Assembly (NCBI GenBank): GCA_017546265.1
Contig: JAFYXG010000011.1
Coordinates: forward strand, 221-64,220
From: Alphaproteobacteria bacterium
GTDB lineage: Bacteria > Pseudomonadota > Alphaproteobacteria > Rs-D84
DNA: 64,000 bases
Reading direction: 5' to 3'
The first letter of the stretch is position 1; the number at the start of each line of letters is the position of its first letter. The notes under the pieces were generated by a model. It had not been told where the DNA came from and did not search any database. It saw only the letters and a program-made list of their open reading frames with translations. This document shows, piece by piece, positions 8,443-58,870 of this stretch. A program made the position numbers and the translations under genes.

Positions 8443-8445
8443 CGC

Positions 8446-8476: not shown

Positions 8477-8527
8477 ATAACTAAATAATTGCAAAGCGGG
8501 CTTTTTTAGCATAAAATATTATATATT

Positions 8528-14293: not shown

Positions 14294-14302
14294 ATTATGA
14301 TT

Positions 14303-14328
14303 GGGTCGTCTGAAAGCGGCCCTTTTTT
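14303..14328. terminator. bidirectional terminator between murG and the PagL-like gene
   Basis: GGGTCG / CGGCCC hairpin (one G-U pair) followed by a T6 run. Confidence 0.5.
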
Positions 14329-14333
14329 ATATT

Positions 14334-14882: not shown

Positions 14883-15077
14883 ATGTAAAATTATATTCAG
14901 AAAAATCATATGTTCTACTGGACAGAATTCATAAAAATGCCGCAGATAACTGTGTATTAGTTGTTTACACAGTAAAAAAAAATTGTTATAATCAAAGAAG
15001 ATGAACACACTAACTGTGTGTTGCTATGCGTACAAAGGTTGGATTTCTGGGGACGCCCAGAATACAGGGAGAGCTTA

Positions 15078-41577: not shown

Positions 41578-41603
41578 GAAAACCGCCAAACGGCGGTTTT
41601 TTT
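41578..41603. terminator. bidirectional terminator
   Basis: CCGCC-AAAC-GGCGG hairpin followed by a T7 run. Confidence 0.65.
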
Positions 41604-42969: not shown

Positions 42970-43073
42970 ATATTTTATCATTTGCGTTCTATATGATATA
43001 CAAAAAGTTATATTTTTCAAATGAAACTTTTCCCTTGCAGCAAATTTTTTTATGCCCTAGGATAATTATCATT

Positions 43074-43796: not shown

Positions 43797-43850
43797 TAAA
43801 TATATTTTTATTAGGTATTTTGTTGCAAGTATGATATAATACTCTTCGTT

Positions 43851-44804
43851 ATGAAGCGTTGGATTGTCTCTTGTTTACTTGGCATATTGTGCCCATGCGT
43901 ATCGTTTGCGGATTCTGATATTCTGCAACGTGCCAATGATTTATATGATGCTACACGTGCGGTGTGTATGGGGATATCGGACGAAATTGCCCGTGTTGGG
44001 AATATTTCTCGTGTCAATACGATGGTGACGGCGGCTGGCACGGTTGCGTCTGGTGGTGCACTGGTTGTTGGTATTGAAAAAAACAAACAGGATGAACGTG
44101 TAAATCAACTGGTTGATCAGATATGCTCTGCGGGTGGTTGTGATGAGGACGGTGTATCTGCCATGTCTGATGCGGATTTTTTTGCATTTGTTTTAGGGCC
44201 TATGTCTCGTATGGCAGAACTGCAGCAGGAATTAGATCGTTCTGAAAAGCTTGGAAATTGGCGTACTGCGTTAACTGCCGGGGCACTTGGGACAAATATT
44301 GCATCGGCTGTATTGTCTGGTGTGAACCGCGACCAATCAGATTTGGTTCAGCATATTCAGGCATGTAACAATATGGTTCAAAAAGTATCTGAACTGGTGA
44401 TACAGATAAAGTCATCTGGCATAAATCCATATGAAAATCCGATTGTAAAAAAACTGGACGATGTTCAGACATGGTGTGGTCGTCTTAATGTGTCTGACAT
44501 AGAAAAAATAGAAAACAGAATCAAGGGGGTATTGGGTACGTCTGTTACAGGTGCGGCGATTGGTGTTGCGGGTGTTGCGACCAGTGCTGCTGCGAATTCT
44601 GATAAATATACAGATGCTACTCTCAGGACTTCGTTATCCCAGACTGAACAAAACCAGGGGCGTGCATTAAATATTGCAGCCAATGTTATGGCGGGGGCGG
44701 GGACTGCGACAGGTATTGCGGGTACAGGTTTGAACATATCCTTGATAACATTAACAAACAAACTGATTGCCCAATCCGACCAGTGTGAAGGGGTGTTAAA
44801 ATGA
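43851..44804 (+). CDS. secreted Gly/Ala-rich protein, module A1 (317 aa), function unknown
   Basis: Signal peptide and four Gly/Ala/Thr-rich weakly hydrophobic segments. Blocks KLGNWRT and C-terminal QCEGVLK. Paralog of 54489-55427. Extended -10 TGATATAAT at 43832-43840. Confidence 0.8.
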   Translation: MKRWIVSCLLGILCPCVSFADSDILQRANDLYDATRAVCMGISDEIARVGNISRVNTMVTAAGTVASGGALVVGIEKNKQDERVNQLVDQICSAGGCDEDGVSAMSDADFFAFVLGPMSRMAELQQELDRSEKLGNWRTALTAGALGTNIASAVLSGVNRDQSDLVQHIQACNNMVQKVSELVIQIKSSGINPYENPIVKKLDDVQTWCGRLNVSDIEKIENRIKGVLGTSVTGAAIGVAGVATSAAANSDKYTDATLRTSLSQTEQNQGRALNIAANVMAGAGTATGIAGTGLNISLITLTNKLIAQSDQCEGVLK

Positions 44805-45700
44805 TACTGCGTCATTTGCTTACTTTTTTATTTGTGCTTGCCGTTCCTGTTTGCGGTTATGCTGACATGGTTGGTTATAACGGTGATTTGCGCCGATATG
44901 TGACTGATGCAGAAAAGTCACAGTTTCCATTTAATACGGTTGTTCGCTTTGATGATGGTGTGTCAACTGGTACAGGCACATTTGTATCGCCCAGTGTTAT
45001 TTTGACATGTCGTCATGTTGTTGACGGTGTGGGCCAGGGTAATTCTATAACCTATTATACATCTGATGGGGTGGCACATTCTGGTTTAGTATTTGCGTAC
45101 ATCAAGGACGATTACAGTGGCCATGATTTTGCGTATGTTATTGATCGTGATGCATTGCGTGGCAAACCTTTACTAGATGTTGCTTCGGCTGCCCGTGATG
45201 ATGCCAATGTGATGACAATTGGGTATGACAGTTTAAAGCCGCTATCGCCCCAGGAATTAGCCATAATAAAACGCGTGTACAAGACCAAGATTTCCCAGGC
45301 TGGTGGTCTGCGGCCAGATAATGCATTCAAAATACTGGCTGGGGTCGAGAAAGAGTTGCGTACAACCTATGCCTGCACTACACCAGACCAGCAGCATTGT
45401 GTTCACTGCACGGGCGAGTTTCCATTTTGTATATTTGATGACAGTAAAAATATGAAAACTCAATCCGGTTGTGCTGCTCGGGTTTCAGGTGATCAGATTC
45501 ATACCACCTGTGCCAGTGCCCAAGGTGCATCTGGTTCGCCCGTCATAGATGGGACGCGAACTGTATTGTCTGGTGTTTTGTGTGAACTCGAAGGGTTTCA
45601 AATAGGTCAATCAGCCGATGCGACATCATGGGCTACGCGTCCTGAAATGTACTATGAAACATTGAAAATGGTTATTGAAAATGTTGATTCTTCACAATAA
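44801..45700 (+). CDS. secreted trypsin-like (S1-family) serine protease, module A2
   Basis: Signal peptide. Triad contexts LTCRHV (His), HDFAYV (Asp) and GASGSPV (Ser). ATGA overlap with A1. Confidence 0.8.
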   Translation: MILRHLLTFLFVLAVPVCGYADMVGYNGDLRRYVTDAEKSQFPFNTVVRFDDGVSTGTGTFVSPSVILTCRHVVDGVGQGNSITYYTSDGVAHSGLVFAYIKDDYSGHDFAYVIDRDALRGKPLLDVASAARDDANVMTIGYDSLKPLSPQELAIIKRVYKTKISQAGGLRPDNAFKILAGVEKELRTTYACTTPDQQHCVHCTGEFPFCIFDDSKNMKTQSGCAARVSGDQIHTTCASAQGASGSPVIDGTRTVLSGVLCELEGFQIGQSADATSWATRPEMYYETLKMVIENVDSSQ

Positions 45701-45762
45701 TGTGGCGAAATAGGTTTCGGAATGATATAATACTCGCATATATAAAAACAAAGGTGAAAGTT

Positions 45763-46098
45763 ATGGCAAAGCAAGATTTGGTAAATGAACGCGTAAATAT
45801 TGCACAACAAGAATTGGCAAAACGTGCACAAAGATTGGATCGTTTGGTTGCGTCTCGCCGTGGCAAAATGAATGCGGTCGGTTTTGACCGTGGTGTAGAA
45901 TTGGTCCGTGAAATGATAGAAAATCAATCGAAACTGTATGATGTTGTTGTTTTTGATATGCCAAAAACCGCATTGGAACAGCATCGTAATTTAATGTTGG
46001 CCACGGGCACCATGAATCAGTCCGTCCAGGAAGGAATCAAGACCGCCACCGATGCGATTGACGCAATGTTGCATACATTGGAACAAATGAGTCGTTAA
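45763..46098 (+). CDS. small helical hypothetical protein (111 aa), module A3
   Basis: ORF 45700-46098 trimmed to ATG 45763 (AAAGGTGAAAG RBS). TGATATAAT at 45723-45731. Confidence 0.6.
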   Translation: MAKQDLVNERVNIAQQELAKRAQRLDRLVASRRGKMNAVGFDRGVELVREMIENQSKLYDVVVFDMPKTALEQHRNLMLATGTMNQSVQEGIKTATDAIDAMLHTLEQMSR

Positions 46099-46105
46099 AA
46101 TTCTG

Positions 46106-46126
46106 CCGTCCGTCTGGGCGGTTTTT
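46106..46126 (+). terminator. Rho-independent terminator
   Basis: CCGTCC-GTCT-GGGCGG hairpin (one G-U pair) followed by a T5 run. Confidence 0.55.
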
Positions 46127-46178
46127 GTAGCTATGTAAGATTTGACATGCTGTTGCATAATAAGAACAAGGAAGTATT

Positions 46179-46400
46179 ATGAAAGGTGCGATAATTTTTT
46201 GTATTCTTGGGATTCTTTATTGTACGCTTAATTCATGTGCGATAAATTCGCGTGCGGACAGCATAATGCATCAGATGTATGCCGGTCAATACACATTAAT
46301 GTCAGTGATGTTTTTGTGTTGTATATTTATCGTGCTGGCAGTGATGCAAAACAAAAAATCCAGTGAAAAATCCGATACAGAAAAACAGATCAGTAAATAA
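46179..46400 (+). CDS. small membrane protein / possible lipoprotein (73 aa)
   Basis: AAGGAAG RBS and two hydrophobic segments. Possible lipobox LNSC. Confidence 0.5.
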   Translation: MKGAIIFCILGILYCTLNSCAINSRADSIMHQMYAGQYTLMSVMFLCCIFIVLAVMQNKKSSEKSDTEKQISK

Positions 46401-46428
46401 AAAATGCCCTGATGGGCATTATTTATTT
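46400..46428 (+). terminator. Rho-independent terminator at the core/island boundary
   Basis: ATGCCC-TGAT-GGGCAT hairpin (46403-46418) followed by TATTTATTTT. Confidence 0.6.
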
Positions 46429-46626
46429 TGGTTGACGATAGTTAACGAATTTCGAACCACTTACTATAATGATATTATGAACATCGCAACGATAGTGAAA
46501 CAACTAATCAATAATAATATTATGTGTTTTCAAACAAATATACACATCGCATAAAAAATATACTGTCAAAAAACAAATTATACATTATTATGGTAAAGAT
46601 ACATAAAACCATAAAGGTGCATAATA

Positions 46627-47487
46627 ATGACCAAGTTAGGCACATCATACGAAAAACTTGTTCAGGACATATTTCAAACCATCCTTAACACTGAATATGG
46701 ACAAAGAAACATTAAAGTTCAGAGAAATGTAAAACTTATTGGCAAATCAGGAATAGAACGTGAATTTGACATTTATTGGGAATATGAACAAGCAGGTTTC
46801 ATTCACAAAACTGTAATAGAGTGCAAAGACTATTCTAACCCAATATCAATCGATAGAATAGATGCTTTTATTGGAAAATTACAAGATTTTCCAAATATGT
46901 TTGGCGTTTTTGCCACAAAAGTAGGTTATCAATCTGGTGCAATGGCATATGCCGAGAATAACAACATAGACACAATAATAATTAGAGAACCAGATATAAC
47001 AAAAGACTTTACTGACAAATCTGGAATCCCTTTAATAAAAATAATCCAGCTAAATATAGAAATGCATTTGCCACCAATAATAACAAAAGTCAATGCGGTT
47101 TTAGATAAAGAATATATTAAAGAAAATTCTATTACAAATATACCCCCAAATGAATACGTTAGTTTTCCCGACAAAATCTGGATAGAAAACACAGAAACAG
47201 GAACAAAAAATACCCTGTATGACATTATACACGATATAGAAACTAATCCAGAACCAACATACGGACACCATGAAAAACAAATAAGATTTAGTAATACATT
47301 TATAACGTATGAAAACGGAACGCGTTTCAAAATAAAACAACTTGATATAGCATATGAAACTCATGCGCCAACAGTATCCACAATAAACATAGATGCACAA
47401 AATATATTCACTGCCATAATAGAGTACTTATCTAATGGTAATAAAAAAGCGTTCTTATATAATGGTACAATTAAGAACCTTACATAA
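46627..47487 (+). CDS. Mrr-like (PD-(D/E)xK) restriction-endonuclease-domain protein with unknown C-terminal domain
   Basis: Block GIEREFDIYWEY...VIECKDYSNPISIDRIDAFIGKL...GVFATKVGYQSGA fits the Mrr_cat pattern as recalled. About 150 further aa are of unknown type. Confidence 0.65.
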   Translation: MTKLGTSYEKLVQDIFQTILNTEYGQRNIKVQRNVKLIGKSGIEREFDIYWEYEQAGFIHKTVIECKDYSNPISIDRIDAFIGKLQDFPNMFGVFATKVGYQSGAMAYAENNNIDTIIIREPDITKDFTDKSGIPLIKIIQLNIEMHLPPIITKVNAVLDKEYIKENSITNIPPNEYVSFPDKIWIENTETGTKNTLYDIIHDIETNPEPTYGHHEKQIRFSNTFITYENGTRFKIKQLDIAYETHAPTVSTINIDAQNIFTAIIEYLSNGNKKAFLYNGTIKNLT

Positions 47488-47550
47488 CTTGTTTTTCACT
47501 AAAATCAATCCTATGATTACACATAAGTAATAAACATAGGGTTTTGATTT

Positions 47551-48231
47551 ATGGTAAATGATAAAAAATACTGCTCATTACAAGAAAGCACATACTGGAT
47601 TGCCTTTGGCACAACGACTCCACCAGCGCAAGTCGTTCTTGAACAAGAACAAGTACTAAATAAAGCCAAAGAAAACCTATTTGATATGCTAGTTGCTGGG
47701 TTGCTTATCCCAACAGGTATTCAAATGGAATTAAAACCAACTGATTATCTGCCAAAATATCATAAATCCGAACGTAAAAAATTCAAAGTACATCAATCTA
47801 TCTTTCTAGACATAGTAGAGAACAGTATTTTTGATGCTTATATAGACGACAATAAACATGTTCAATGCAACCAGTTCAAATTCATGACAGACATAGAAAT
47901 TGATTTTAATGAACTAAAAAAGCATTTCCCGCCAAAACAAGACGATACAAACACAAAAAAACGCCCCGTAAGCAGACAAATTCATGACATCGTGTACTAT
48001 TTCTGGGAAAACAACCCGAATTTATCAGTAAAGCAAATTAGTGATATAACCAATTATGTTATAGTAAATTTTTTCCCTGAAATAGCAAAAGGCAAAAATA
48101 CGGTAAAGCTAAACACGGTAAGAACATGGCGTTCCGAATTTTCACAAGGCAAATACACCCCCGCAATCCCAAAACATAAGATAAGCAAACAATATCGTGG
48201 CATATTTCAAAAACTTAACGATGCTATATAA
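47551..48231 (+). CDS. hypothetical protein (226 aa), possible C-terminal HTH
   Basis: ORF in the island. No family recognised. Confidence 0.5.
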   Translation: MVNDKKYCSLQESTYWIAFGTTTPPAQVVLEQEQVLNKAKENLFDMLVAGLLIPTGIQMELKPTDYLPKYHKSERKKFKVHQSIFLDIVENSIFDAYIDDNKHVQCNQFKFMTDIEIDFNELKKHFPPKQDDTNTKKRPVSRQIHDIVYYFWENNPNLSVKQISDITNYVIVNFFPEIAKGKNTVKLNTVRTWRSEFSQGKYTPAIPKHKISKQYRGIFQKLNDAI

Positions 48232-48393
48232 ATATAGATATAAAATAGATTTAATATAAATATCATTTTCAAAAAAAAATTTTCATATAAAAGCCCCTGT
48301 TTTATGGGTTTTTTTTGAAATATATTTCCCCACAAATTTCAGACATGTGTATTAGTACTTAAATATTTTTTACGTCCAATACATTTTTTGCTT

Positions 48394-48552
48394 ATGGAAA
48401 CACAAGGCAAGTTATCTTTGAAACTAAAAAAACTGTACGCCGAACCAATATCGGACACAGATGCCACAGATGCGGCTGGGGGCTTAATTGCGTTTTTCAA
48501 GATTCTTGCTGATATAGCCAAAGAACAAAAACAGATAAAGGGGGTGGTATAG
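48394..48552 (+). CDS. small hypothetical protein (52 aa), tentative
   Basis: Hand-translated METQGKLSLKLKKLYAEPISDTDATDAAGGLIAFFKILADIAKEQKQIKGVV, followed by a hairpin and T6 run at 48553-48594. Preferred over the antisense ORF 48339-48521. Confidence 0.3.
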   Translation: METQGKLSLKLKKLYAEPISDTDATDAAGGLIAFFKILADIAKEQKQIKGVV

Positions 48553-48749
48553 GGGGTATGTTCAGCCAGCGCAAACCCAGCGCACCCCTTTTTTACGATA
48601 TACAGGGGGCATATTTGTGGACTCTATTACATAAACAATAATATTGCACCCCGCCCTTATTGCAAGTGTAATCGGCGAAAATCCACACAAATCAAATAAA
48701 AATTGGGGAATACCCCCATTAAATAACTAATACATAAAAGGAGTATGGT

Positions 48750-49259
48750 ATGTTAAAAGAAAATCCAAAAAACAAAGACCTTATAAAATATGTACAGGAC
48801 TTTGCACCAAACTATCACTTAACCCTACAATGGGACTTGAACCACAGAACACGTACAATACCTGTACTGGAAAAACGTCTGGATTATTTTATGTCCCGTG
48901 TACAAAGGGAACTAATGGGTCGTGGGTGGCATCGCCACCATATACCTTTTATCGGTTTTGGCGAGATAAATGAATTTGGGGAATATCACATGCATATACT
49001 GATAAAAGATACACAGCATACCTTATCACAATGGAAACAGGCATTTCACAAGATAAGTGTACGAACAAGACAAACACCAATCCCCAGGAATCCCTATTTA
49101 CAAGAAATAACCCCAGGGACAGAGTGGCAAGTTGCAAAATACTGCACCAAACAATTAAACAGTGTGGATGATGCATACGCAAATTCTGTGCTTATTACAT
49201 CTGAATACTTATTTGGTAAAAAGAAACGAGGGAAACAATGGGTTGGACGTATTTTATAA
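48750..49259 (+). CDS. HUH-superfamily single-Tyr nuclease (rolling-circle Rep / IS200-type Y1 transposase / RAYT-like), tentative
   Basis: AAGGAG RBS. Three ordered motifs: YHLTLQW (motif I-like), EYHMHILIK (HUH) and VAKYCTKQ (Y-x2-K). Confidence 0.5.
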   Translation: MLKENPKNKDLIKYVQDFAPNYHLTLQWDLNHRTRTIPVLEKRLDYFMSRVQRELMGRGWHRHHIPFIGFGEINEFGEYHMHILIKDTQHTLSQWKQAFHKISVRTRQTPIPRNPYLQEITPGTEWQVAKYCTKQLNSVDDAYANSVLITSEYLFGKKKRGKQWVGRIL

Positions 49260-49353
49260 CATATAACATGCAAAAATCTGCGTTTTTTCATTTTTCAAAT
49301 AATGGAAAGATGCGAATTTCTGGGCGAACAACAAAAAAATAGCAACTTTCATT

Positions 49354-49387
49354 GATTTATAGATACGCCATGGCGTATCTATAAATC
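49354..49387. repeat. perfect 34-bp palindrome (17+17, no loop)
   Basis: GATTTATAGATACGCCA|TGGCGTATCTATAAATC, 95 nt downstream of the HUH gene stop. Confidence 0.95.
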
Positions 49388-49573
49388 AGATAAACTTGTT
49401 TGTTGCCAAACAAATTATATCACATTTTGCTGTTTTTTTCAACACAGTATCCACCGCCCCACAACAAACCAAAAAAGGGTTGCCCTATGCCGATATATAA
49501 AAACTTTACCACCCTATATCCCACCATGAATTATTTCTTGGTGTTTTGGAAATTTCAGTATATACTGTACATT

Positions 49574-49796
49574 GAATCCAGTGGGAATTGGATTCGGGGC
49601 TGTGATAAGCCCAGTTCACACGGTGCAAATACGCATCGTTATCTTGATGTAATGGTGCGTTGCACCGTTATGTCCCTGACCTTTGTGGTCGGGGAGCTGT
49701 TGGCTATACAACAGGGGAAACCTAAAAGCCACGGAATCATTTGTGAACTGATTTATCAACTCCCCGACCGTCTTATTCCCTATGACGGTCTTTTTT
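49574..49796 (+). ncRNA. highly structured leader of about 220 nt with intrinsic terminator (candidate riboswitch/attenuator, sRNA, or ssDNA origin)
   Basis: Stems seen by eye: GAATCC/GGATTC (49574-79/49590-95), GGGCT/AGCCC (49597-601/49608-12), ACGGTGCAA/TTGCACCGT (49620-28/49660-68), GGTCGGGGAG/CTCCCCGACC (49687-96/49760-69) and CTGTTG/CAACAG (49697-702/49709-14). Terminator GACCGTC/GACGGTC plus T6 at 49766-49796. Confidence 0.45.
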
Positions 49797-49816
49797 ACAC
49801 TTACAAGGGGACAGAT

Positions 49817-49990
49817 ATGAAAAAACATACAATGTATTATTGGGGAATTGCGTTAACTATACTTAGCTTTTTTGCACTGGTTATGACAACAGACCCATTG
49901 GCGATTGGGCGATATTTTGGCGGTATCGGTGCGGGCATTATCTTGACTATTGTTGGCTATAAAAAGTCAAAAAAACAGACAAAGGAATAA
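49817..49990 (+). CDS. small two-TM membrane protein (57 aa)
   Basis: The ATG 49817 sub-ORF of the implausible 196-aa ORF, with AAGGGGA RBS. Sequence MKKHTMYYWGIALTILSFFALVM...GGIGAGIILTIVGY. Confidence 0.45.
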   Translation: MKKHTMYYWGIALTILSFFALVMTTDPLAIGRYFGGIGAGIILTIVGYKKSKKQTKE

Positions 49991-49992
49991 AT

Positions 49993-50175
49993 ATGGACAG
50001 GCTAATCATAATATTATTTTTAGTGTTATGGGGCATTGTAATGAAAGCCCTTATAAAACCGTCAAGCAAACCAGAGCCATATATAGAAGTCCTGTTCTAT
50101 ATTGGACTGATTCTTGTAATTCCATATATTGTATTCATTCTACTAGGTGGGAAAAACAATGGCAAATCAAAATAA
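49993..50175 (+). CDS. small two-TM membrane protein (60 aa)
   Basis: Starts 3 nt after the previous stop. Hydrophobic throughout. Confidence 0.45.
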   Translation: MDRLIIILFLVLWGIVMKALIKPSSKPEPYIEVLFYIGLILVIPYIVFILLGGKNNGKSK

Positions 50176-50617
50176 ATACATCATTGGCATTTGTTGTTTG
50201 TTGTGTGCATGTACAGCAATCACAAAAAACACAACCAAAAATGACTTTTTTACAAAAGTTGAAACATTATCCCCTGTATGCCAAAGAGCAACAGTTATAG
50301 CTAATATCATAGATAGAGCTTATTCAAACATAGAAAAAAACAACAGCCTTTCTGATACAGCAATGGTACACATTTGTGTTGCTGATGCTGTATATCAAGC
50401 CACAGACACAGAACTAACCGCGATAATAACGGACAAATACACGTATAACACATTGTCAAGCCTCTACAAAACATGTAACGAAACAATAGATTCTATCGGC
50501 ACCCGCTTATCACTATTATTTAAATACAGCGACAGATTAAAACAGCTTAATGAATATGTAATCAAAGCCACTCAAGATTGTTATTTAGTAGAGCAGATGC
50601 AAATAAATAAAATCTAA
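50159..50617 (+). CDS. lipoprotein (152 aa), function unknown
   Basis: ATG 50159 (MANQNKYIIGICCLLCAC) with lipobox LLCAC. Overlaps the previous small ORF. Confidence 0.55.
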   Translation: MANQNKYIIGICCLLCACTAITKNTTKNDFFTKVETLSPVCQRATVIANIIDRAYSNIEKNNSLSDTAMVHICVADAVYQATDTELTAIITDKYTYNTLSSLYKTCNETIDSIGTRLSLLFKYSDRLKQLNEYVIKATQDCYLVEQMQINKI

Positions 50618-50671
50618 CACTTGAAAAAATAACAAACGAAACCATGTATATATGTGTTAAAGAAGAATAAT

Positions 50672-50696
50672 CTCCCATCTGTGGGAGTTATTTTTT
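50672..50696 (+). terminator. Rho-independent terminator
   Basis: CTCCCA-TCTG-TGGGAG hairpin followed by TTATTTTTTATT. Confidence 0.55.
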
Positions 50697-50760
50697 ATTG
50701 ACAACAAACAAATTTCATGTCAAAATTAACAAAACTTCGTTAAAAATGGAGCGAAACAAC

Positions 50761-51951
50761 ATGTTTTTAAACTTTAAAATCAAAAATTATCGTTCAATCG
50801 GTCGAGAAGTCGTTGTCGATTTTACTATCTCTGAAAGCCAAAGAAAAAACGCTTATTCCGAGATTGCTGGCAAGGCTATCAATAACATCGCTTGTATCGT
50901 TGGTCCCAACGCCAGCGGAAAAAGTAATATACTAAAAGCAATTGTATTCTTTCTTAGATATCTTTATCGTTCCTACTCTGTTCCGTCATTGAGAGGTGAG
51001 GATAATGTAGATACACATTTTTGTTGTAAAAATGAGCCCACAGAATTTTCTACAGAATTTATAGACAACGAAAAACAGTATAAGTACGAAATAGCACTTT
51101 TAAAAGGCGAAGTTCACAAAGAAGTTCTGTCTGTACTCAAAGAAGATACAAAACGCTATAATCTAATCTTTAAACGAGAATCAAACAAACCTATACAGAA
51201 TATAATTACTATAAACGAACAGGATTTAGAGCGCTTACGTGACGATATGTCTTTGTTGTCGTTATTGTTGGAATTGAATTATTTTGGCAAAGATGAATTT
51301 AGTACGTTAAGAAAATTTTTAACAAATGTACACCCTGGATTTGTTATCGGTCGATACAATCCATTGCAAGAGCTTAGCGAGATATCTAAAGAACTGGAAA
51401 AGGATAAATTGTTATTTGATGAATTGATTGAAGAACTTAAGAATATTGACACGGGTATTTCTGGTTTAAAATTCGGAACATTACAAAAAGCAAACCCAGA
51501 TTTGACCGGAGAATCAGAATATTCTACCATAATTACCACACATACTATTGATGGACATCTTCATCCTCTACTACTTCTGCAAGAATCTAGTGGAACATTA
51601 AATTATATTAATTTGTTTATACGACTGTATAAAATCTTTAGAGATGGTGGGCTGTTGATAGCAGATGAACTAGAGGACAGTCTTCATCCCGATATAACAA
51701 ATAGAATAATTAATAGATTCTTAAACAAGGAGAAAAATCCAAACGACTCGCAAATCTTATTTACCACACACAATCCGTGGTTCTTACAGAATTTGACAAA
51801 AACACAAATATTTATCGCAGAAAAGGACTCAAAAAGCGAAACAGAGCTTACGAGACTGGACGAAATTCAAGGGGTCAGAAATGATGAAAATTATTTCATC
51901 AAATATCTAGCAGGCGAATATGATGGGCGACCAAAAATCAAGGAGTCCTAA
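50761..51951 (+). CDS. ABC-type AAA ATPase (AAA_15/AAA_21-like), AbiLi/RloA-like
   Basis: ATG 50761 (GGAG 9 nt upstream; MFLNFKIKNYRSIG). Walker A GPNASGKSN, Walker B/D-loop LLIADELEDSLHP and H-loop FTTHNP. Confidence 0.8.
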   Translation: MFLNFKIKNYRSIGREVVVDFTISESQRKNAYSEIAGKAINNIACIVGPNASGKSNILKAIVFFLRYLYRSYSVPSLRGEDNVDTHFCCKNEPTEFSTEFIDNEKQYKYEIALLKGEVHKEVLSVLKEDTKRYNLIFKRESNKPIQNIITINEQDLERLRDDMSLLSLLLELNYFGKDEFSTLRKFLTNVHPGFVIGRYNPLQELSEISKELEKDKLLFDELIEELKNIDTGISGLKFGTLQKANPDLTGESEYSTIITTHTIDGHLHPLLLLQESSGTLNYINLFIRLYKIFRDGGLLIADELEDSLHPDITNRIINRFLNKEKNPNDSQILFTTHNPWFLQNLTKTQIFIAEKDSKSETELTRLDEIQGVRNDENYFIKYLAGEYDGRPKIKES

Positions 51952-51953
51952 TA

Positions 51954-52697
51954 ATGAAGAAGAAAAAACGCAATTCCATAATAATTGTTCATGAAGGCGA
52001 CCGAGAATTATATTTTTTAGAACATATATCTCAATTTAGCGATGTTCGATTAAATCCGCAACACTGTCACGGCGGAAGTGGAACAAATGTTTTGAACACA
52101 GCTTTTAAGCATTCTGATTATGGTCAAGTAACATTTGCGTTTTTTGATGAAGATTTTCAATTTGTTGCCCCTTTACAAATTGATGAAGAAACTCTTGCTG
52201 CCCTAGAACGCAGATGGCGTTTGTCTGAAGGAACACTGAAAGACGTCAAGTACACTGATTTGCAAGCGCAAAACACAGATGGTCGAAATCCCATATTAAT
52301 CGTTTCTTCTCCCAATTCTATAGAGGGATTGATTTTAAGACTTATTGGCATTTCTGAGAAAGCACTACGTGGAAAAACAACAAGAAAACTGAAAGAAATG
52401 CTGGATGCCGAAATAGCCACCATAGAATTAACAGAAGAAGACCTGAGCTGTATCGACGTTTGTGAAAATAAAATTCATCGCTACCTTTTGGCAAAAGCGG
52501 AATTAACAAAGGAAGCCCCTTGCTATAAACAACGGTTAAAATCTATAGACTCCAAAATCGACGAAACAAAAAAACAAAAACATAAAATTGTATTCAAAAG
52601 ATTTTTAAATACTAAAGTAGGACGAGATGTTTTAATTGCCAATATAGACCAAATACCCGCAGTTAAATTATTATTAGATGCCTTTGGCGTTTGTTAA
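51954..52697 (+). CDS. RloB-like protein (AbiLii-like partner of the ATPase)
   Basis: Starts 2 nt after the ATPase stop. N-terminal block IIIVHEGDRELYFLEHI resembles the RloB EG..TE..YF motif. Later block ILIVSSPNSIEGLILRL. Confidence 0.65.
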   Translation: MKKKKRNSIIIVHEGDRELYFLEHISQFSDVRLNPQHCHGGSGTNVLNTAFKHSDYGQVTFAFFDEDFQFVAPLQIDEETLAALERRWRLSEGTLKDVKYTDLQAQNTDGRNPILIVSSPNSIEGLILRLIGISEKALRGKTTRKLKEMLDAEIATIELTEEDLSCIDVCENKIHRYLLAKAELTKEAPCYKQRLKSIDSKIDETKKQKHKIVFKRFLNTKVGRDVLIANIDQIPAVKLLLDAFGVC

Positions 52698-52718
52698 CTA
52701 TCCTTGGCGAGGTCAAAT

Positions 52719-54254
52719 ATGAAAGCGGTAATTCTTGCACGTGTATCTTCCCGAGAACAAGAAATGGGGCAATCTATTGATGCACAGCTGGAAAACATGA
52801 AAAAATATGCCCAGCACAAAGAATTACCGCTATTAAAAACATTTCAGATAACTGAAAGCTCTACACGTGGTGAACGTAAAAAATTTACGGAAATGTTAAA
52901 CTTTGTAAAGGCACAACGTGAAAAAGTTGCCCTTGTTGCCGATACAATAGACCGCATCCAGCGCAGTTTCAAAGAATCCGTAGAACTGGACGAATTACGC
53001 AAAAGCGATAAAATAGAGATACACTTTATTCGTGAAAACTTGATTTTACACAAAGATTCAAGTAGTACGGACATTGCTCGCTGGGATTTAGGGGTATTTA
53101 CCGCAAAAACATACGTTGGCAACCTGCGTGATAATGTAAAACGCAGTATTGATTACAACACCAAACATGGTATCTGGCAAAGTTGTGCACCATTTGGTTA
53201 TTTAAACCGTCGTGATATAAACAACAAACCTATTATAATCCAAGACCCAGAACGTGCACTTGGAATACGTCGTCTGTTTGAAGAATACGCATCTGGCTTG
53301 TACACAATCAGCGAACTATTGCAAAAATCCAAAGAGTGGGGATTAACAAATCCAAAAACGAATTTACCAATAACAAAAACAACCCTGTTCAAGATGCTTA
53401 ATAACCCATTTTATTATGGTATGATGTTGGTAAAAGGGACTTTATATCCGCATATCTATAAACCCATAATAGACAAGACATTGTTTGATAAATGTCAATC
53501 TATTATGAACGGTAAAAACCGTAAGCGATTCAAATATGCTGAAAAGCCGTATGTGTTCAGGGGGGTAATCAAATGTGCGGACTGTGGTTGTGCAATAACA
53601 AGCGACACCAAGACCAAAGCCAGCGGAAAGACGTATACATACCTAGAATGTTCGCATTACAAAGGCAATTGTTCGCAACCTGCTGTAAATGAAAATGACC
53701 TGCTAAACCAAATTAGCACAGAAATCTTTGAGAAATTATCTTTCCCACCAGAAATCATGCAAGATATTGCCGATTGTTTAAGCAATGTATTACGGGCTGA
53801 AAACGCATATTTACTGGACGAAACAAGCAAATTACAGAAAAAGCACAACGAATTAAAAACCAAGAAAAACCGTCTGCTGGATTTGCTTATCAGCAACAGC
53901 ATCAGCCAAGACGACTATAACGACAAAAAGACCGAGATAGAAGAAGAACTACATACCATAGACACACAATTAAACGCACACAGACAAGCCGACAGCACAT
54001 TTACAACAACGGTTGAATCAATCTTTGCGCTGGCATCACATGCGGGCGAATTATTCAAGAGTTCGAAAGTAGAACAAAAACGTGCACTTTTGAACTTGCT
54101 GCTTTCGAACTGTGAACTAAAAGATAAAAAATTAGTATATTCAATAAGAAAACCGTTCGATGCTCTGCTGAACATGAACGGTTGTAAATCTTGGTTGGGG
54201 CGCACGGATTCGAACCATGATAAAGAGAACCAAAATCTCTTGTCCTACCATTAG
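52719..54254 (+). CDS. large serine recombinase (integrase)
   Basis: ATG 52719 (GAGGT RBS). Resolvase catalytic domain MKAVILARVSSREQ, a recombinase domain, zinc ribbon CADCGCAI...CSHYKGNC and a coiled coil. The last 63 nt overlap tRNA-Gln on the opposite strand. Confidence 0.9.
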   Translation: MKAVILARVSSREQEMGQSIDAQLENMKKYAQHKELPLLKTFQITESSTRGERKKFTEMLNFVKAQREKVALVADTIDRIQRSFKESVELDELRKSDKIEIHFIRENLILHKDSSSTDIARWDLGVFTAKTYVGNLRDNVKRSIDYNTKHGIWQSCAPFGYLNRRDINNKPIIIQDPERALGIRRLFEEYASGLYTISELLQKSKEWGLTNPKTNLPITKTTLFKMLNNPFYYGMMLVKGTLYPHIYKPIIDKTLFDKCQSIMNGKNRKRFKYAEKPYVFRGVIKCADCGCAITSDTKTKASGKTYTYLECSHYKGNCSQPAVNENDLLNQISTEIFEKLSFPPEIMQDIADCLSNVLRAENAYLLDETSKLQKKHNELKTKKNRLLDLLISNSISQDDYNDKKTEIEEELHTIDTQLNAHRQADSTFTTTVESIFALASHAGELFKSSKVEQKRALLNLLLSNCELKDKKLVYSIRKPFDALLNMNGCKSWLGRTDSNHDKENQNLLSYH

Positions 54255-54265
54255 ACGACACCCCA
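54192..54265 (-). tRNA. tRNA-Gln (anticodon UUG), CCA encoded
   Basis: Hand-folded cloverleaf: TGGGGTG/TC/GTCT-AATGGTA-GGAC/A/AGAGA-TTTTGGT-TCTCT/TTAT/CATGG-TTCGAAT-CCGTG/CGCCCCA/A/CCA. Confidence 0.85.
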
Positions 54266-54488
54266 AAAGCACAGGTTATTATACTTATAATTTGCAACTT
54301 TGCAATAATAATTTTTGTTGGCATAACCACAACAGTGTCGAAATTAAACGGTGGTTAAAAAACAACATGTTTTTTACTATAATTTTGGCCGTTTTTTTGG
54401 TATTATATAAGAATAAAGACACAGTTGTTTTTTTACCACGTTTAAAAACAACATAATAAAAACCTATTCAAACACAGGGAGAGCAAGG

Positions 54489-55427
54489 GTGAGGGCGTTT
54501 TTATCTGGCATAATTTTTTCCGTTATGTGTATGCCTGTTTTTGCGGACGTTTTGTCTTTGGATGACGCGTTGCGTGCAACATACACTGCGTGCATTGGTA
54601 TTGATGATGGTTTAAACGACATGCGGCGTTTGGCGGGGATAAACACTGCGATAACCGGGGTTGGGACTGTGGCGGGTGCCGGTGCGACCGTTGTTGGTAT
54701 TGTAAAAACATCCAAAGATGCCAAGGCAGAATCGCTTGAGGCGATATTAAAAGAAATCCAGGAAATGACGGCAAATTCTGCCCCTATGACCACCGCAGAA
54801 ATCGACCGTTTTATGTCTGAATTTAATGCGTACTATGAAACCGCGATTAAGACCGCAGACGGTGTTCAATCTGAACTGGATAAAACGGTTGCCCAGTCTA
54901 AAAAGTTGGGTAATTGGCGAACAGGTTTATTGGCGGGCGGCACCGCAACCAACCTGGCCGGTGCGATAATTGCATCATCAAATCGTGTTGATGGCGACAT
55001 ATTTGCCCAAATAGAATCGTGTCGTGCATCTGTTGCTGCGTTGCGTAATTCTGTTATCCAGGCCCGCATAAATGGCCAGGATGTATCCGAGGCTCAATCC
55101 ATCATTTCTGCTTGTGGCGAATTTGACTATGCTGACCTGTCCAAGATAAATACCAAGGCCCGCGGTGCGACAATTTCGTCTGCGATTGGTGCAACAACTG
55201 GTGCGGTTGGTACGGTTTTGTCGGCCAGTGCGAATTCCAAGGATGTCCGCAATGACAATACAGACTCTGGTAAACAGCGTGAAAAGAATTTAAACACGGC
55301 ATCGAATATATTTGCTGGTGCAACAACTGCTGCATCTGCGACTGCGACAATATTTAATGCGACCCAAATTGGTGCTATACGGCGTGTGTCTGACATCGCC
55401 CAAGAATGTACAAAGGTGTTAAAATGA
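54489..55427 (+). CDS. secreted Gly/Ala-rich protein, module B1 (312 aa), paralog of 43851-44804
   Basis: GTG start after GGGAGAG, with a signal peptide. Shared blocks GVGTVAGAGATVVGI, KLGNWRTGLLAGG and C-terminal ECTKVLK. Confidence 0.8.
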   Translation: MRAFLSGIIFSVMCMPVFADVLSLDDALRATYTACIGIDDGLNDMRRLAGINTAITGVGTVAGAGATVVGIVKTSKDAKAESLEAILKEIQEMTANSAPMTTAEIDRFMSEFNAYYETAIKTADGVQSELDKTVAQSKKLGNWRTGLLAGGTATNLAGAIIASSNRVDGDIFAQIESCRASVAALRNSVIQARINGQDVSEAQSIISACGEFDYADLSKINTKARGATISSAIGATTGAVGTVLSASANSKDVRNDNTDSGKQREKNLNTASNIFAGATTAASATATIFNATQIGAIRRVSDIAQECTKVLK

Positions 55428-58400
55428 AGAAAATAATATCCATCTTATGTTGTTCGTTGTTTGCGTTTTCTGCGAACGCAGCGGTCGAGTGTTTGCGTGT
55501 GAATGGCACGGCATTGGAAACGATTGTTGCAACACATTTTACAGATCTGTCTGTCCAGACATCTGTTTTGTCGCAATTGCGTGATACGTTGGCAAAAAAC
55601 AGCAGTGGTTGTATTTATGTGACTGATGCGTACGCATTGTGTACTGTGGGCGGCTTGGATAATAAAAACAAATCAGATTTTCAACGTTGCAGTGCATTTG
55701 TTCGTGGCCTGGCAAATTCTGCATCGGATGTATTTTATCATGTTTGTGGTGCCGATCGTGGCAAATCTGGTGGCACAGAACATTGTGTCAAAGATGTTTT
55801 TAATGGCATTTTGTATGGCACCCAGGTGCAGTTGTCCCAGGGGATTGGTTTGGCTAGGATGTATGCAGATGTTAAATTTAATGATGCGTCTGTGATATGT
55901 AATCGCAAATTCGACAAAGTCGGCATCCAGGATTACAGTTTGATGTGTAAATCTGCCGATGGTCGTACTTTTTATGAGTTCTATTTTGACGACCTGGAAG
56001 AAACCAAGGATTATGAAATTCGGGCCAGCACAGAAAATGCAATATGTCAGATGCATGGTGTAAAGTATTTGCCGTCTGGTAATAATCCAAATGCCGCTGC
56101 GGTTAATAACACAGCAAATGCTATTTGGCCATCTGCGTGTAATACTACGGATGTGGCCGTGTGTGCACAAATTGCTCAGAATGCAAAACGTTTGGCATAC
56201 AGTGCCAAGATTGGTTCTTGGAAAAACGGTCAACAGGCATGTGTTTTATCTCAATCTCGTGGCACACTAAAACTGCGTACCAAGTATGGTATCGACAACA
56301 TGCATTTCCGCAGTTCTGGCATTCAATTAAATGCACAAATGCACCTGCATGACCAGATAAGACAGTATGTTGAATCTGTCATTGCACCAACAAAATTGGA
56401 ATCTTTTGATTGTGATTATAATTCCAGTCCTTATTATGACGGTAATGAACCTGACGAGGTTCTGACATGTCGTGTAAATGGATATCCTGTTGATTTCTTG
56501 TTTGACGATTTGTCGGAATCGTGGGGCATTACATCCCGTGCCGGCGAACAGGGTATGGAATGTATTGTTCGTGGTGGCACATACGATGGCAAACACTGCC
56601 TGCGTTTGGACCAAAAACAATGTGACAAATTAAAACAGACGTCTGCTGCAACGTGTCCAGAATGTAAATCGGTTGTGTGGAATGCAACAGATGGTGTTTG
56701 CCAATTGCCTGCATCGGCCAGTGGCACCACCCTGCAAAAAGGCATTGTGATTGGTGGTATAGTTGCGGGTGCCGCAGCGGCGGCGGTAATCACTGTTGCA
56801 ACTGGTGGTACTGGGGCGGCTGCCCTGACGATTGTGGCGGTTGAAACTGCGGGGGCGGGTATAGAATTGGCTGCTCAAACAAAAATTAACAAGGCGGCAG
56901 ATGAATTCCTGTTGCAGTCGCACAAGTGCGAAACGGCAGACTGTGCAGTTTCCTTGATTGGTCAGCATTTTGAACGCCTGGCCAACATGACCAATGACCT
57001 GAATGTTTCCGAAGAAGATGCCATAGATCGTGAAATGGCCAGACTGATTGAACTGATTCCCGATGATTCTGAATTTCTGCAACAGGTTCTGGCCGATGGG
57101 ACAACGTTGGCCGAACGTGAAAAGGGCCTGTTCGAGGCTGATTCATGGGAACCTGAACAGATATGGCGTGCCGCGGGAATTGCATTACAGTTAACGTCAT
57201 TGGTGACTGCTGCGGGTAAATGGATTATGGTTGGTGGAAAAACTGTGACAACCAAAATTCCACACGCAACAGATGTTATGCGGTTAAAGTTAACGCGTGC
57301 CCAGGCAAAATCCCTGGCGGATTTAGATGGTGTAATTGCGTCCATTACAAAACAGCGTCAGGCGACAAATTTGTCGAAAAGCAAGGCAGATAAATTGTGG
57401 GAATCACTGAAGACGGCCCAACAATCTCGTCAGACGTTGCTGAATAAATTGGGTAATCCCCCGGCCGAGGCATTGCCATTACTGCAACGCGAGGCCATGG
57501 CTGCGGATGAATTGCGTCTGGCCCAGGAAGAATTGACTGCAATTGCACGGCAACAAGATGAACTTTATATGGTTAACAAAAATGGCCAACAGGTTTTAAA
57601 GCCAGGAAAGACTAAGTATGATGTTTCTGATTTGGCACGCAGAAATGATGCGGTCGCAAAACAAATTGATGGTCTTGAAAGTGAATTAAAAACACTTGAT
57701 GAACAACTAAATGCGATGTTGGGAACCAAAAAGATAGAATATATCGAACAAACCACAACAACACCATCGCGTCAGCTGTTCAATGATGGTATCGCACCTG
57801 ATGCGGTCTTGGCCAAGGTAGCCATTGCCGAGGTGAAAAATCAAACCCGCAAAGAATGGGATGCGGTACCCGCCGTAGATACTGTTGAAAGTATGCAACG
57901 TGAAATCCCAGAACCCGAGGTTATTCTTGATGACATTGTCATTGATGATACGATTGAACCACTGCCAATGGATTTAAATCTTCCTTTGGATAAGGATGAC
58001 TTGACGGTAAAACCAATACCGATGCCAGGTTCAGTGGTTCCGCCCGTAAAACCCAATGTGGTGCCGGAACCGATTGTTGATCAGAATATCGATATCCCAG
58101 AAGAAGATATCGTTATCCCAGACACAAAACTGGATTTGTCCGGTGATAAACTGTCTGTTACACCGATTGCACTGGATAATGGTGGTGCCAAACAGAAAAC
58201 ACCACGCAACATCACTCCGCATTCGGTTGAACGTTCTGGTGGTCGCGGTTGGATTGCGGCTGCAACTGTTGCGGGCCTGGTTGGTACGGGGGTATTGGTT
58301 GGAACGTTGGTTGGCAAAGACAGTGATGATTCGAAAAGCAATGCAACTGGTGCAACCGCAAAACCAGAATTGGAATCGTTGATGGTGACGGCTGGTGGTA

Positions 58401-58870
58401 TTTTGGGCTATGTTGATAATAATGAAATCACGTTGGTTCCGCTGCCGACAACTGTTAATACCAATGCACCGATTGTGGATATAAATAATCGTGCGGTCGT
58501 AGTTGTGCGGTATAAGACATACAATCTGCCATATTATTTGGATGCTGGTCGTTCTGCATGGGTTCCCTTGTTGGGAATTGGGCAAACTGGTGGCTGGTTT
58601 AATACCTATCCAAACATCGACAGTACTGGTATTGCCAGATTGGATAAAATAACCAAGACATTGAATCAAATGTTGCCGGCCCGCACAGTTCTGAAATATA
58701 CAGGGCAAAATAATTATGGTGTTCGGTTTCCGTTTGCGGCATCCACAGCATACAGTATTATAAACGCAGAATTTCCCGGTGGTGTTGTTCAGACATACAA
58801 TGGGTCGTTTACCTCTGTTGACCGTGCGTTATACGATCGGAATTACCAGCATATAAAATCAGTGCTGTGA
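55424..58870 (+). CDS. large secreted/membrane protein (1148 aa), module B2, function unknown
   Basis: ATG 55424 overlaps the B1 stop (ATGA). Signal peptide, then a Cys-rich region of about 430 aa and a Gly/Ala-rich TM hairpin. A coiled coil, an acidic Pro-rich spacer, a second TM segment and an unknown C-terminal domain of about 190 aa follow. Confidence 0.85.
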   Translation: MKKIISILCCSLFAFSANAAVECLRVNGTALETIVATHFTDLSVQTSVLSQLRDTLAKNSSGCIYVTDAYALCTVGGLDNKNKSDFQRCSAFVRGLANSASDVFYHVCGADRGKSGGTEHCVKDVFNGILYGTQVQLSQGIGLARMYADVKFNDASVICNRKFDKVGIQDYSLMCKSADGRTFYEFYFDDLEETKDYEIRASTENAICQMHGVKYLPSGNNPNAAAVNNTANAIWPSACNTTDVAVCAQIAQNAKRLAYSAKIGSWKNGQQACVLSQSRGTLKLRTKYGIDNMHFRSSGIQLNAQMHLHDQIRQYVESVIAPTKLESFDCDYNSSPYYDGNEPDEVLTCRVNGYPVDFLFDDLSESWGITSRAGEQGMECIVRGGTYDGKHCLRLDQKQCDKLKQTSAATCPECKSVVWNATDGVCQLPASASGTTLQKGIVIGGIVAGAAAAAVITVATGGTGAAALTIVAVETAGAGIELAAQTKINKAADEFLLQSHKCETADCAVSLIGQHFERLANMTNDLNVSEEDAIDREMARLIELIPDDSEFLQQVLADGTTLAEREKGLFEADSWEPEQIWRAAGIALQLTSLVTAAGKWIMVGGKTVTTKIPHATDVMRLKLTRAQAKSLADLDGVIASITKQRQATNLSKSKADKLWESLKTAQQSRQTLLNKLGNPPAEALPLLQREAMAADELRLAQEELTAIARQQDELYMVNKNGQQVLKPGKTKYDVSDLARRNDAVAKQIDGLESELKTLDEQLNAMLGTKKIEYIEQTTTTPSRQLFNDGIAPDAVLAKVAIAEVKNQTRKEWDAVPAVDTVESMQREIPEPEVILDDIVIDDTIEPLPMDLNLPLDKDDLTVKPIPMPGSVVPPVKPNVVPEPIVDQNIDIPEEDIVIPDTKLDLSGDKLSVTPIALDNGGAKQKTPRNITPHSVERSGGRGWIAAATVAGLVGTGVLVGTLVGKDSDDSKSNATGATAKPELESLMVTAGGILGYVDNNEITLVPLPTTVNTNAPIVDINNRAVVVVRYKTYNLPYYLDAGRSAWVPLLGIGQTGGWFNTYPNIDSTGIARLDKITKTLNQMLPARTVLKYTGQNNYGVRFPFAASTAYSIINAEFPGGVVQTYNGSFTSVDRALYDRNYQHIKSVL

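Follow-up and report, generated by a model that had tools for sequence, protein, structure and literature searches.

Two gene pairs in the window

We analysed a window of 64,000 nucleotides (nt) from an alphaproteobacterium of the order Rs-D84 (assembly GCA_017546265.1, contig JAFYXG010000011.1, positions 221 to 64,220 of the forward strand); window coordinates below count from its first letter. The window carries two gene pairs, A1-A2 and B1-B2, that lie on either side of a tRNA-Gln gene and its mobile island, with a further small gene, A3, after A2. The first genes of the two pairs encode predicted exported proteins of one and the same family, and the second genes, each of which starts inside the stop codon of the first, encode exported proteins of quite different kinds. 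The four genes are as follows (aa, amino acids).

43851-44804, + strand: A1, 317 aa, with a signal peptide, four invariant Cys, four glycine-zipper segments and the A-type CxxGGC motif
44801-45700, + strand: A2, exported S1-type (V8/Spl-like) serine protease; its start overlaps the stop of A1 (ATGA)
54489-55427, + strand: B1, 312 aa, GTG start, same family as A1
55424-58870, + strand: B2, 1148 aa; its start overlaps the stop of B1 (ATGA)

A preliminary description of this DNA had reported A1 and B1 as homologous open reading frames (ORFs). Both ORFs are present, and the proteins are paralogs that BLASTP aligns over their full length (31% identity in 328 columns, E=2e-34), the alignment covering the motifs GTVA.GGA.VVGI, KLGNWRT and C..VLK.

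A profile search of 1.84 billion representative proteins returned 452 clusters of the family at E<=1e-3 (about 450 clusters at 50% identity), and a scan of species-representative genomes found 359 coding stretches. The named members come only from uncultured gut and rumen Alphaproteobacteria, many of them named Candidatus Enterousia, of the order Rs-D84, and several genomes, including some of less than 1 Mb, hold at least two copies. Genomes of Ca. Enterousia are mostly smaller than 1 Mb and lack most biosynthetic pathways, and the organisms have been proposed to obtain metabolites from other cells (PMC12306168). Flagella are missing in Enterousia, and type IV pili were not reported in one genome survey. 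The literature found under "Enterousia" and "Rs-D84" consists of genome surveys, with nothing in it on the A1/B1 family. As judged from these sequence comparisons, A1 and B1 represent an undescribed, lineage-restricted family of predicted exported proteins.

Anatomy of the family protein

We aligned 96 diverse members of the family (mean column identity 30%); residues are given in A1 numbering. The signal peptide is conserved, with Ala at position -1 followed by an acidic residue, and is predicted to be cleaved. Residues C39, G74, G135, R138, T139, C172, C209, S245 and C312 are invariant. Where the preliminary description had seen a single conserved mid-protein Cys, there is indeed conservation, but of two residues (C172 and C209), and the invariant Cys number four overall. 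A-type members, in addition, strictly keep a CxxGGC motif in the first linker, at the tip of a predicted hairpin. We also considered whether the family might be lipoproteins and rejected this reading, because there is no lipobox and no Cys of the signal peptide is conserved across orthologs.

The most distinctive feature of the protein is a set of four segments, 19-32 residues each, that contain no Asp, Glu, Lys or Arg in any of the 96 members and consist mostly of Gly, Ala, Ser, Thr, Val, Ile and Asn. They lie in the window as follows.

44013-44075, + strand: A1 segment 1 (aa 55-75), charge-free and rich in Gly, Ala, Thr and Val; stripe T57-G63/T64-A70-G74
44265-44327, + strand: A1 segment 2 (aa 139-159), charge-free; invariant motif LGNWRT directly before it
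44526-44600, + strand: A1 segment 3 (aa 226-250); stripe G234-G238-G241-S245-A248/N249
44664-44759, + strand: A1 segment 4 (aa 272-303); stripe N274-N278-A281-S288-T292-N295-I299
54630-54704, 54921-54983, 55164-55238 and 55287-55379, + strand: the charge-free segments of B1 (aa 48-72, 145-165, 226-250 and 267-297)

The hydrophobicity of these segments is marginal, with a mean Kyte-Doolittle value (KD(19)) of 0.9-1.4 and crude Hessa sums of +3 to +6; the transmembrane (TM) segments of B2, our internal control, score -0.1 and +1.5 by the same measure. Conservation is periodic with an alpha-helical repeat in segments 1, 3 and 4, and segment 2 shows no periodicity. In segment 3 the conservation moment is 0.44 at 100 degrees as against 0.05-0.08 at 160-180 degrees. 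A beta or amyloid-like reading of the Gly/Asn/Thr repeats was discarded, since the periodicity is helical and does not fall at 160-180 degrees. The conserved face of the segments carries Gly, Ser, Thr and Asn and the variable face Val, Ile, Leu and Ala, which on sequence grounds we read as the inside-out pattern of membrane helices. Small residues follow the glycine-zipper spacing (i, i+4 or i+3, i+7/8) at G63-G67-A70-G74, G234-G238-G241-S245-A248 and A281-S288-T292, although the glycine-zipper transmembrane motif is a motif class and not a homologous family.

An AlphaFold2 (AF2) model built from the 96 sequences is all-helical (predicted local distance difference test, pLDDT, 77.8; predicted TM-score, pTM, 0.55), with helices of about 52 residues that run through the segments; with a shallower alignment the pLDDT was 63 and the segments fell below 50. 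Variants of 570-760 aa have, precisely at the point between segments 1 and 2, a very large insert that is coiled coil in part; this position fits a hairpin whose two ends stay together. Across the family, the coiled coil of linker 1 is about 58 to about 390 residues long, and Pro/Thr-rich N-terminal spacers occur in some members. In the flanks of the segments, Lys and Arg amount to 11.5 per protein on the side opposite the Cys and to 8.2 on the Cys side.

The overlapping stop and start

Both family genes in the window end in the same 13-nt junction, GGTGTTAAAATGA (44792-44804 in A1 and 55415-55427 in B1), and the ATG codons of A2 at 44801 and B2 at 55424 lie within it as ATGA, exactly as had been reported. 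We examined this identity as a candidate regulatory element and set the idea aside. The family C-terminus, (x)VLK-stop, together with the overlap explains it: the overlap forces a Lys codon ending in A and then TGA, so that the identity is not an independent signal, and within the 13 nt chance accounts only for the agreement in the codons chosen for Val and Leu. What is conserved at the junction is the overlap itself.

The preliminary description had also asked whether homologs in related genomes are always followed by an overlapping gene, and in our survey most of them are. We collected 85 distinct full-length members from 79 genome loci, from the loci around individual homologs and from the window, 83 of which were assessable. 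A long downstream ORF starts in a 4-nt ATGA overlap in 52 of the 85 members and in a GTGA overlap in 2, a 1-nt overlap is found in 9 and some other overlap in 7; the genes are separated by a gap of at most 30 nt in 6 members and by more than 30 nt in 7, and the junction could not be assessed in 2. The downstream gene overlaps the family gene in 70 of the 83 assessable members (84%) and begins within 30 nt in 76.

The partner proteins

A2, like B2, opens with a typical signal peptide. It matches Pfam Trypsin_2 with 41.5 bits (cutoff 27.6, E=2.9e-10) and Trypsin with 22.6 bits (cutoff 20.6), has the motifs TCRHV and GxSGSP as well as extra Cys, and retains an intact triad of H72, D109 and S244 that is kept in 43-44 of 47 partner proteases. 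The above-cutoff domain and the conserved triad together assign A2, by sequence, to peptidase S1, in keeping with the secreted trypsin-like protease first proposed. Its closest relatives in the PDB, all weak (E>=0.003), are the staphylococcal Spl, V8 and exfoliative-toxin proteases, and there is a very weak match to the MarP family (NCBIfam NF033740, E=0.0055, 15.8 bits against a cutoff of 250; PDB entry 3k6z, E=0.05).

Trypsin-like proteases are the partner in 47 of the 85 members. Directly after the signal peptide (A2 aa 25-31, nt 44873-44893), Asp29 is kept in 47 of 47 partner proteases and Arg31 in 45 of 47; these residues may mark a propeptide or activation site, or else a docking site. 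In loci L001 and L002 (10001-15083) three trypsin-like protease genes, alternating with two genes of 265 and 192 aa, come after a single family gene, and about 1 kb beyond them there is a Slam-like gene (TPR_Slam + SlipAM).

B2 is the 1148-aa Cys-rich protein noted earlier downstream of B1. Its signal peptide is followed by a domain with 20 Cys (aa 23-426), a 34-aa charge-free hydrophobic stretch (440-473), the motif C502xxxxC507 and a coiled coil. Its C-terminal part comprises a Pro-rich, acidic spacer (about 790-930), a TM segment (942-964) and a conserved C-terminal domain (about 990-1148). The protein has no match in Pfam, NCBIfam or the PDB, and the homologs returned by a homolog search are all unnamed or "hypothetical", one of them with a single precomputed Pfam hit. 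Orthologs of B2 always directly follow orthologs of B1, with a 4-nt overlap, and B2-like partners (920-1150 aa) occur in 11 of the 85 members, all with carriers of the B clade. The surroundings of the pair vary: in the window, L004 and L089 it lies with MarR-OEP-RND efflux genes, and in L006 and L007 between ComEC and a tRNA synthetase gene. Because the pair is fixed, because B2-like proteins occur only with B-clade carriers and because the surrounding housekeeping genes differ between genomes, B1-B2 is not variable cargo; it belongs to the core genome and is stably kept as a pair in all genomes examined, not exchanged as a payload. A 192-aa coiled-coil protein with an N-terminal hydrophobic segment is encoded in the window at 41602-42180 (- strand), and a homolog (33-35% identity) lies immediately downstream of B2 in L004 (14207-14788). 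This gene may belong to the B module as a loosely attached third member.

The remaining partners are exported, Cys-rich proteins of about 250 aa, which form a superfamily (clusters linked to one another by hhalign with 65-93% probability), a 315-aa family and singletons. One singleton, the partner in L081, has a Tlde1 domain just below threshold (E=1.3e-6, 29.2 bits against a cutoff of 30.1; Tlde1/L,D-transpeptidase-like) and the motif LHGT-x11-GGCIS, of the form HG...GGC(I), with no PDB match at the sequence level. All partners inspected have signal peptides. In a neighbour-joining tree of the carriers, protease partners are spread across the whole tree and every other partner family sits nested within certain clades; the type of partner follows the clade of the carrier, and switches of partner are nested inside carrier clades. 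The earlier picture of a conserved gene with variable cargo is therefore right in that several unrelated partner families exist, but proteases dominate and B1-B2 is fixed. Many A-type copies follow a LolA-TatC-LysM/M23 peptidase neighbourhood, a position kept in 11-14 loci. When the neighbouring genes at about 85 loci were clustered, synteny was all that emerged; no third gene accompanies the pair repeatedly from one genomic location to another.

In more distant relatives the family gene stands alone. In L087, which belongs to such a lineage, three paralogs of the family lie within 18 kb (342-1325, 7752-9917 and 13909-15075); an M23 gene is found upstream, and there is no protease partner. One of the paralogs is a 639-aa form with a coiled-coil insert, and in another, of 261 aa, only the C-terminal half of the fold is left (profile positions 196-312), behind an unrelated N-terminal domain with no signal peptide. 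In L088 the family gene is convergent with recO.

Searches for known families and folds

The preliminary description had recognised no characterised family for the conserved component, and nor did we. Searches of A1, B1, A3 and B2 against Pfam, NCBIfam and PADLOC brought up nothing above threshold and only noise below it, such as P5CR_dimer at 20 bits. A Pfam scan of the 96 diverse members at E up to 1 touched 214 families with no consistent weak match, any one family being matched by at most 9 members. Profile and sequence searches of the PDB with the family, with B2 and with the L081 partner produced no match, the family search returning coiled-coil noise at E>=0.4.

Foldseek searches of the PDB with the two models (pLDDT 63 and 78) returned designed helical bundles (best E=0.02), axonemal coiled coils and, without significance, alpha-pore-forming toxins. 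With the pLDDT-78 model, the best natural matches were AhlB, HblL1, MakA, ClyA and XaxB, with E of 0.07-0.4, TM-scores of 0.12-0.29 and root-mean-square deviations (rmsd) of 14-45 A; these model-based matches to the ClyA family are not significant, and we treat them as a weak lead only. In BFVD, Foldseek matched only helices of a generic kind, from phage tail fibres and tape-measure proteins, at rmsd above 14 A.

Local history of the locus

The two modules are separated in the window by a mobile island, whose features and those of its flanks are listed here.

43831-43844, + strand: 14-nt direct repeat ATGATATAATACTC, copy 1; extended -10-like (TGnTATAAT), 7 nt before the ATG of A1
45722-45735, + strand: 14-nt direct repeat ATGATATAATACTC, copy 2; just after the stop of A2, upstream of A3
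45763-46098, + strand: A3, a 111-aa helical protein without a signal peptide; Shine-Dalgarno-like AAAGGTGAAAG 5 nt upstream of the ATG
46428-54192, no strand assigned: low-GC mobile defence island of 7.8 kb at the 3' end of tRNA-Gln, recognised by GC, protein matches and absence from L089
46428-46465: degenerate copy of the tRNA-Gln 3' end, at the far border of the island
46627-47487: Mrr-like restriction nuclease (island)
48750-49259: Rep-like gene (island)
50698-52697: AbiLi/AbiLii abortive-infection pair (island; AbiLi E=3e-69)
52704-54254: large serine recombinase (island; Resolvase, Recombinase and Zn_ribbon_recom); its ORF runs into the tRNA gene
54192-54265, - strand: tRNA-Gln (UUG), attachment site of the island (ARAGORN)

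The stretch 46428-54192 is a tRNA-targeted genomic (defence) island by all of its usual marks: it has a recombinase, a repeat of the tRNA 3' end, a GC content of 0.32-0.38 as against about 0.43 in the flanks, and it is absent from a relative. That relative, L089 (GCA_015062445.1, 82% identity in B1), has the order APH-A3-tRNA-Gln-B1-B2, with neither the island nor A1-A2. From its layout we infer that the modules were adjacent before the island arrived and that A1-A2 is a two-gene unit; on this comparison of sequences, the island split two formerly adjacent modules.

Several smaller observations concern the same region. In L089 (8230-10000, corresponding to window 42993-46434) A3 directly follows the APH-like gene. 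The same locus contains a repeat of about 40-50 nt, composed of a terminator hairpin and the 3' end of tRNA-Gln, in two copies about 178 bp apart; it has the look of a scar left by another small inserted element. In L012 (2901-6155) and L014 (4098-6942), B-like and A-like family genes stand in tandem with a trypsin-like protease gene after each, a layout that mirrors the window before the island; L012 has an A3-like gene between its two modules. The exact repeat ATGATATAATACTC brackets A1-A2, two copies being found in 64 kb where 0.02 are expected, and it may mark how the A1-A2 unit was gained or lost. The position of its first copy, 7 nt before the ATG, means that A1 may be made from a nearly leaderless mRNA. 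A3 itself is the 111-aa helical ORF that had been placed after the protease. We rejected it as a constant third component or immunity gene, for beyond the window it is found only in L012, among 86 loci screened, and in L089, where A1-A2 is missing. Between A3 and the island border lies a 73-aa ORF (46179-46400); its product has two hydrophobic segments, and a terminator hairpin comes after it.

What the family protein may do

We tentatively favour, as possible rather than probable, a reading in which A1 and B1 are exported, disulfide-stapled helical proteins that insert into a membrane and there anchor or translocate the partner made with them. The all-alpha protein would be exported by Sec, its signal peptide cleaved, and it would be stapled by two disulfides, or three in the A type. 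The hydrophobicity of the segments would not suffice to halt their passage through the Sec translocon, so that the protein would first reach the periplasm; full export is suggested by segments that are much weaker than the TM segments of B2, encoded in the same operon, and by the A-type CxxGGC in linker 1, which looks like a disulfide loop. The four helices would then pack through their conserved small and polar stripes into a membrane-embedded bundle, probably an oligomer, in the manner of glycine-zipper channels and alpha-helical pore-forming toxins. Through the overlapping stop and start, the protein and the exported product of the downstream gene would be made in a constant proportion, the latter being the S1 protease in the case of A1 and the giant Cys-rich membrane protein B2 in the case of B1. 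The family protein, perhaps in a physical complex with its partner, would thus act as a membrane-insertion subunit, be it a pore, a translocator or an anchor, that places the partner at or across a membrane, which may be the bacterium's own outer membrane or that of the organism on which this reduced-genome bacterium lives.

In a related reading, which we consider decidedly unlikely, the family would be the single component of a new Sec-dependent all-alpha translocon, a minimal secretion or delivery device. Once its disulfides had formed, a glycine-zipper oligomer would make a channel, either in the outer membrane of the bacterium itself or in the membrane of a parasitised cell, and would pass or present the co-translated partner, whether a protease, a cell-wall-active enzyme or a Cys-rich binder.

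A number of points weigh against a membrane-inserting subunit. The family shows no significant sequence or structure similarity to pore-formers, translocators or secretion components, and we know of no alpha-helical insertion route into the bacterial outer membrane for such proteins. The confidence of the AF2 model is lowest within the segments themselves (56-68), and the Hessa sum as applied here is a crude version without position weighting. The Lys/Arg bias of the flanks is modest and would also fit an ordinary four-TM inner-membrane topology. Finally, 7 of the 83 assessable members have no coupled gene, and the distant relatives in L087 and L088 stand alone beside housekeeping genes. The preliminary description had named homologs without a coupled gene, or a match to a housekeeping family, as grounds for doubting its view; the former do exist, in this minority, and the searches above returned no match of the latter kind. 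Since solo members exist, the family protein must have a function of its own, and their occurrence in distant lineages means that handling a partner can be neither its sole nor its ancestral role.

The rival that deserves most attention, although we think it unlikely, is that of an ordinary polytopic inner-membrane protein that serves as a scaffold, its four segments being true TM helices once the signal peptide has been cleaved. The N-terminal helix, linker 2 and the C-terminal helix, with all four invariant Cys, would form a periplasmic head that docks, tethers or regulates the periplasmic partner, as in MarP, and linker 1 and loop 3 would be cytoplasmic. The invariant Cys do all fall on one side, and the Lys and Arg residues are more numerous on the trans side (11.5 against 8.2 on the Cys side), with loop 3 and both ends of linker 1 rich in them, but this bias is modest, and linker 1 would lie outside the cytoplasm if the A-type CxxGGC at its tip is the disulfide loop that it resembles. 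The AF2 helices are continuous through the segments and extend on both sides of them, the pattern of conserved small and variable hydrophobic residues fits, and the true TM segments of B2 are similar in composition; yet the Hessa sums of the family segments, at +3 to +6, are far above those of B2. The very weak MarP-family match of A2 is on the side of such a scaffold, whereas the family protein matches neither CvpA/Colicin_V nor any other TM family.

We regard as improbable that the protein is structural, a periplasm-spanning or surface helical stalk or adhesin for contact with host cells, with the enzymes merely co-expressed. Such a role would suit the solo copies at core-genome positions in distant lineages, the LolA-TatC-LysM/M23 neighbourhood kept in 11-14 loci and the M23 gene upstream in L087, the extension of linker 1 from about 58 to about 390 residues of coiled coil, the Pro/Thr-rich N-terminal spacers of some members and the several paralogs of sub-1-Mb genomes, but it leaves unexplained the 84% overlap with the next gene, the tracking of partner type with carrier clade and the four charge-free glycine-zipper segments. 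That the protein is a soluble periplasmic chaperone or inhibitor, keeping the partner inactive or folding-competent until its release, is highly doubtful, and among the delivery, chaperone and pore readings first offered for this locus it is the one we least favour. A single fold would have to serve S1 proteases, the Cys-rich family of about 250 aa, membrane proteins of 1000 aa and a Tlde1-like protein; solo members exist; and soluble chaperones do not typically have four long, charge-free Gly/Ala segments whose variable faces are hydrophobic, even though translational coupling fits matched amounts, the periplasmic proteases of a tiny cell need control, and carrier and partner co-diversify. 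Scarcely credible, in our view, is a toxin-immunity module with the family protein as immunity protein for a downstream exported toxin. Toxin-like partners (proteases, the Tlde1-like domain) and multi-copy modules whose presence differs between close relatives might call it to mind, but immunity proteins are specific to a toxin family, and here the partners that follow one conserved family are unrelated to each other, the core pair B1-B2 is fixed in all genomes examined, and solo members occur.

Relation to known systems and significance

In its predicted working, and by analogy, the family is most like the glycine-zipper channel formers, the alpha-helical pore-forming toxins and the membrane-tethered proteases of the MarP type. 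Glycine-zipper channel formers include the N-terminus of VacA, proteins with the (G/A/S)xxxGxxxG packing of MscL and MscS, and the type VI secretion system (T6SS) effectors Tse4 and Ssp6. They share with the family charge-free helices of Gly, Ala, Thr and Val with small residues every 3-4 positions on one face (in A1, G234-G238-G241-S245), but the resemblance is of motif only, and the family would travel by Sec with disulfides where they use an autotransporter passenger or the T6SS. Gly-zipper_Omp, Gly-zipper_YMGG, Gly-zipper_OmpA and Rick_17kDa_Anti were absent from the Pfam matches of A1 and B1 at E up to 1, and also from the 25 most frequent of the 214 families matched by the 96 members.

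The toxins of the ClyA family (ClyA, Hbl/Nhe, AhlABC/SmhABC, MakA, XaxAB/YaxAB) are likewise elongated, all-alpha proteins of about 300-370 aa, with weakly hydrophobic segments thought to be hidden in the soluble form and then inserted into the membrane, and they are encoded in operons with partner proteins. There is, however, no significant similarity to them (Foldseek E>=0.07, TM-score <=0.3): A1, B1 and the 96 members gave no Pfam match of the HlyE, Bacillus_HBL or XaxA type at E up to 1, and in the Foldseek search of the PDB the pLDDT-78 model did not superpose on the ClyA, AhlB or Hbl fold. The family also differs from them in having four glycine-zipper segments instead of one hydrophobic head, two invariant, predicted disulfide pairs and a Sec signal, and its partners are enzymes or giant membrane proteins, whereas those of ClyA-type toxins are paralogous toxin subunits.

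On the protease side, MarP (Rv3671c) likewise combines four hydrophobic helices with a periplasmic trypsin-like protease, as a four-TM CvpA-like domain fused to Trypsin_2. A1 and A2, by contrast, are separate overlapping genes, A2 has only a signal peptide, and A1 is much less hydrophobic and has no CvpA/Colicin_V similarity. The staphylococcal S1B proteases (V8/GluV8, Spl and the exfoliative toxins) share with A2 the Trypsin_2 domain, an intact triad and a Sec signal, although the similarity is distant and A2 differs in its extra Cys and in its coupling to an upstream glycine-zipper protein. Two-partner secretion (TpsB-TpsA) and Slam resemble the family in that a conserved gene sits beside a gene for a variable Sec-exported substrate with no other dedicated component, but the TpsB and Slam helpers are outer-membrane beta-barrels, and the family is all-alpha, of about 315 aa, with no POTRA, DUF560 or barrel domain. 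Polymorphic toxins, for their part, fuse a trafficking part to a toxin domain with an immunity gene downstream, unlike the separate genes found here with no recurring third gene. By analogy, the arrangement would be a non-homologous version of a membrane-inserting helper paired with an exported enzyme, both functions being predicted.

Ca. Enterousia and its order Rs-D84 are widespread bacteria of the gut and rumen that are thought to live off other cells, and a multi-copy family locked to exported proteases and other enzymes is a prime candidate for the machinery by which they interact with those cells. If the family protein were the single-component translocon considered above, it would be the means by which the genome-reduced Enterousia attack or feed on other cells. 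If it is a membrane-inserting or translocating subunit, it would represent an all-helical, disulfide-stapled, glycine-zipper way for diderm bacteria to place proteins at or beyond their envelope. Even as an inner-membrane anchor for periplasmic proteases it would be a new family, of about 450 clusters at 50% identity, clearly marked by its signature and with its set of partners defined, and it offers experimentalists concrete gene pairs with which to work.

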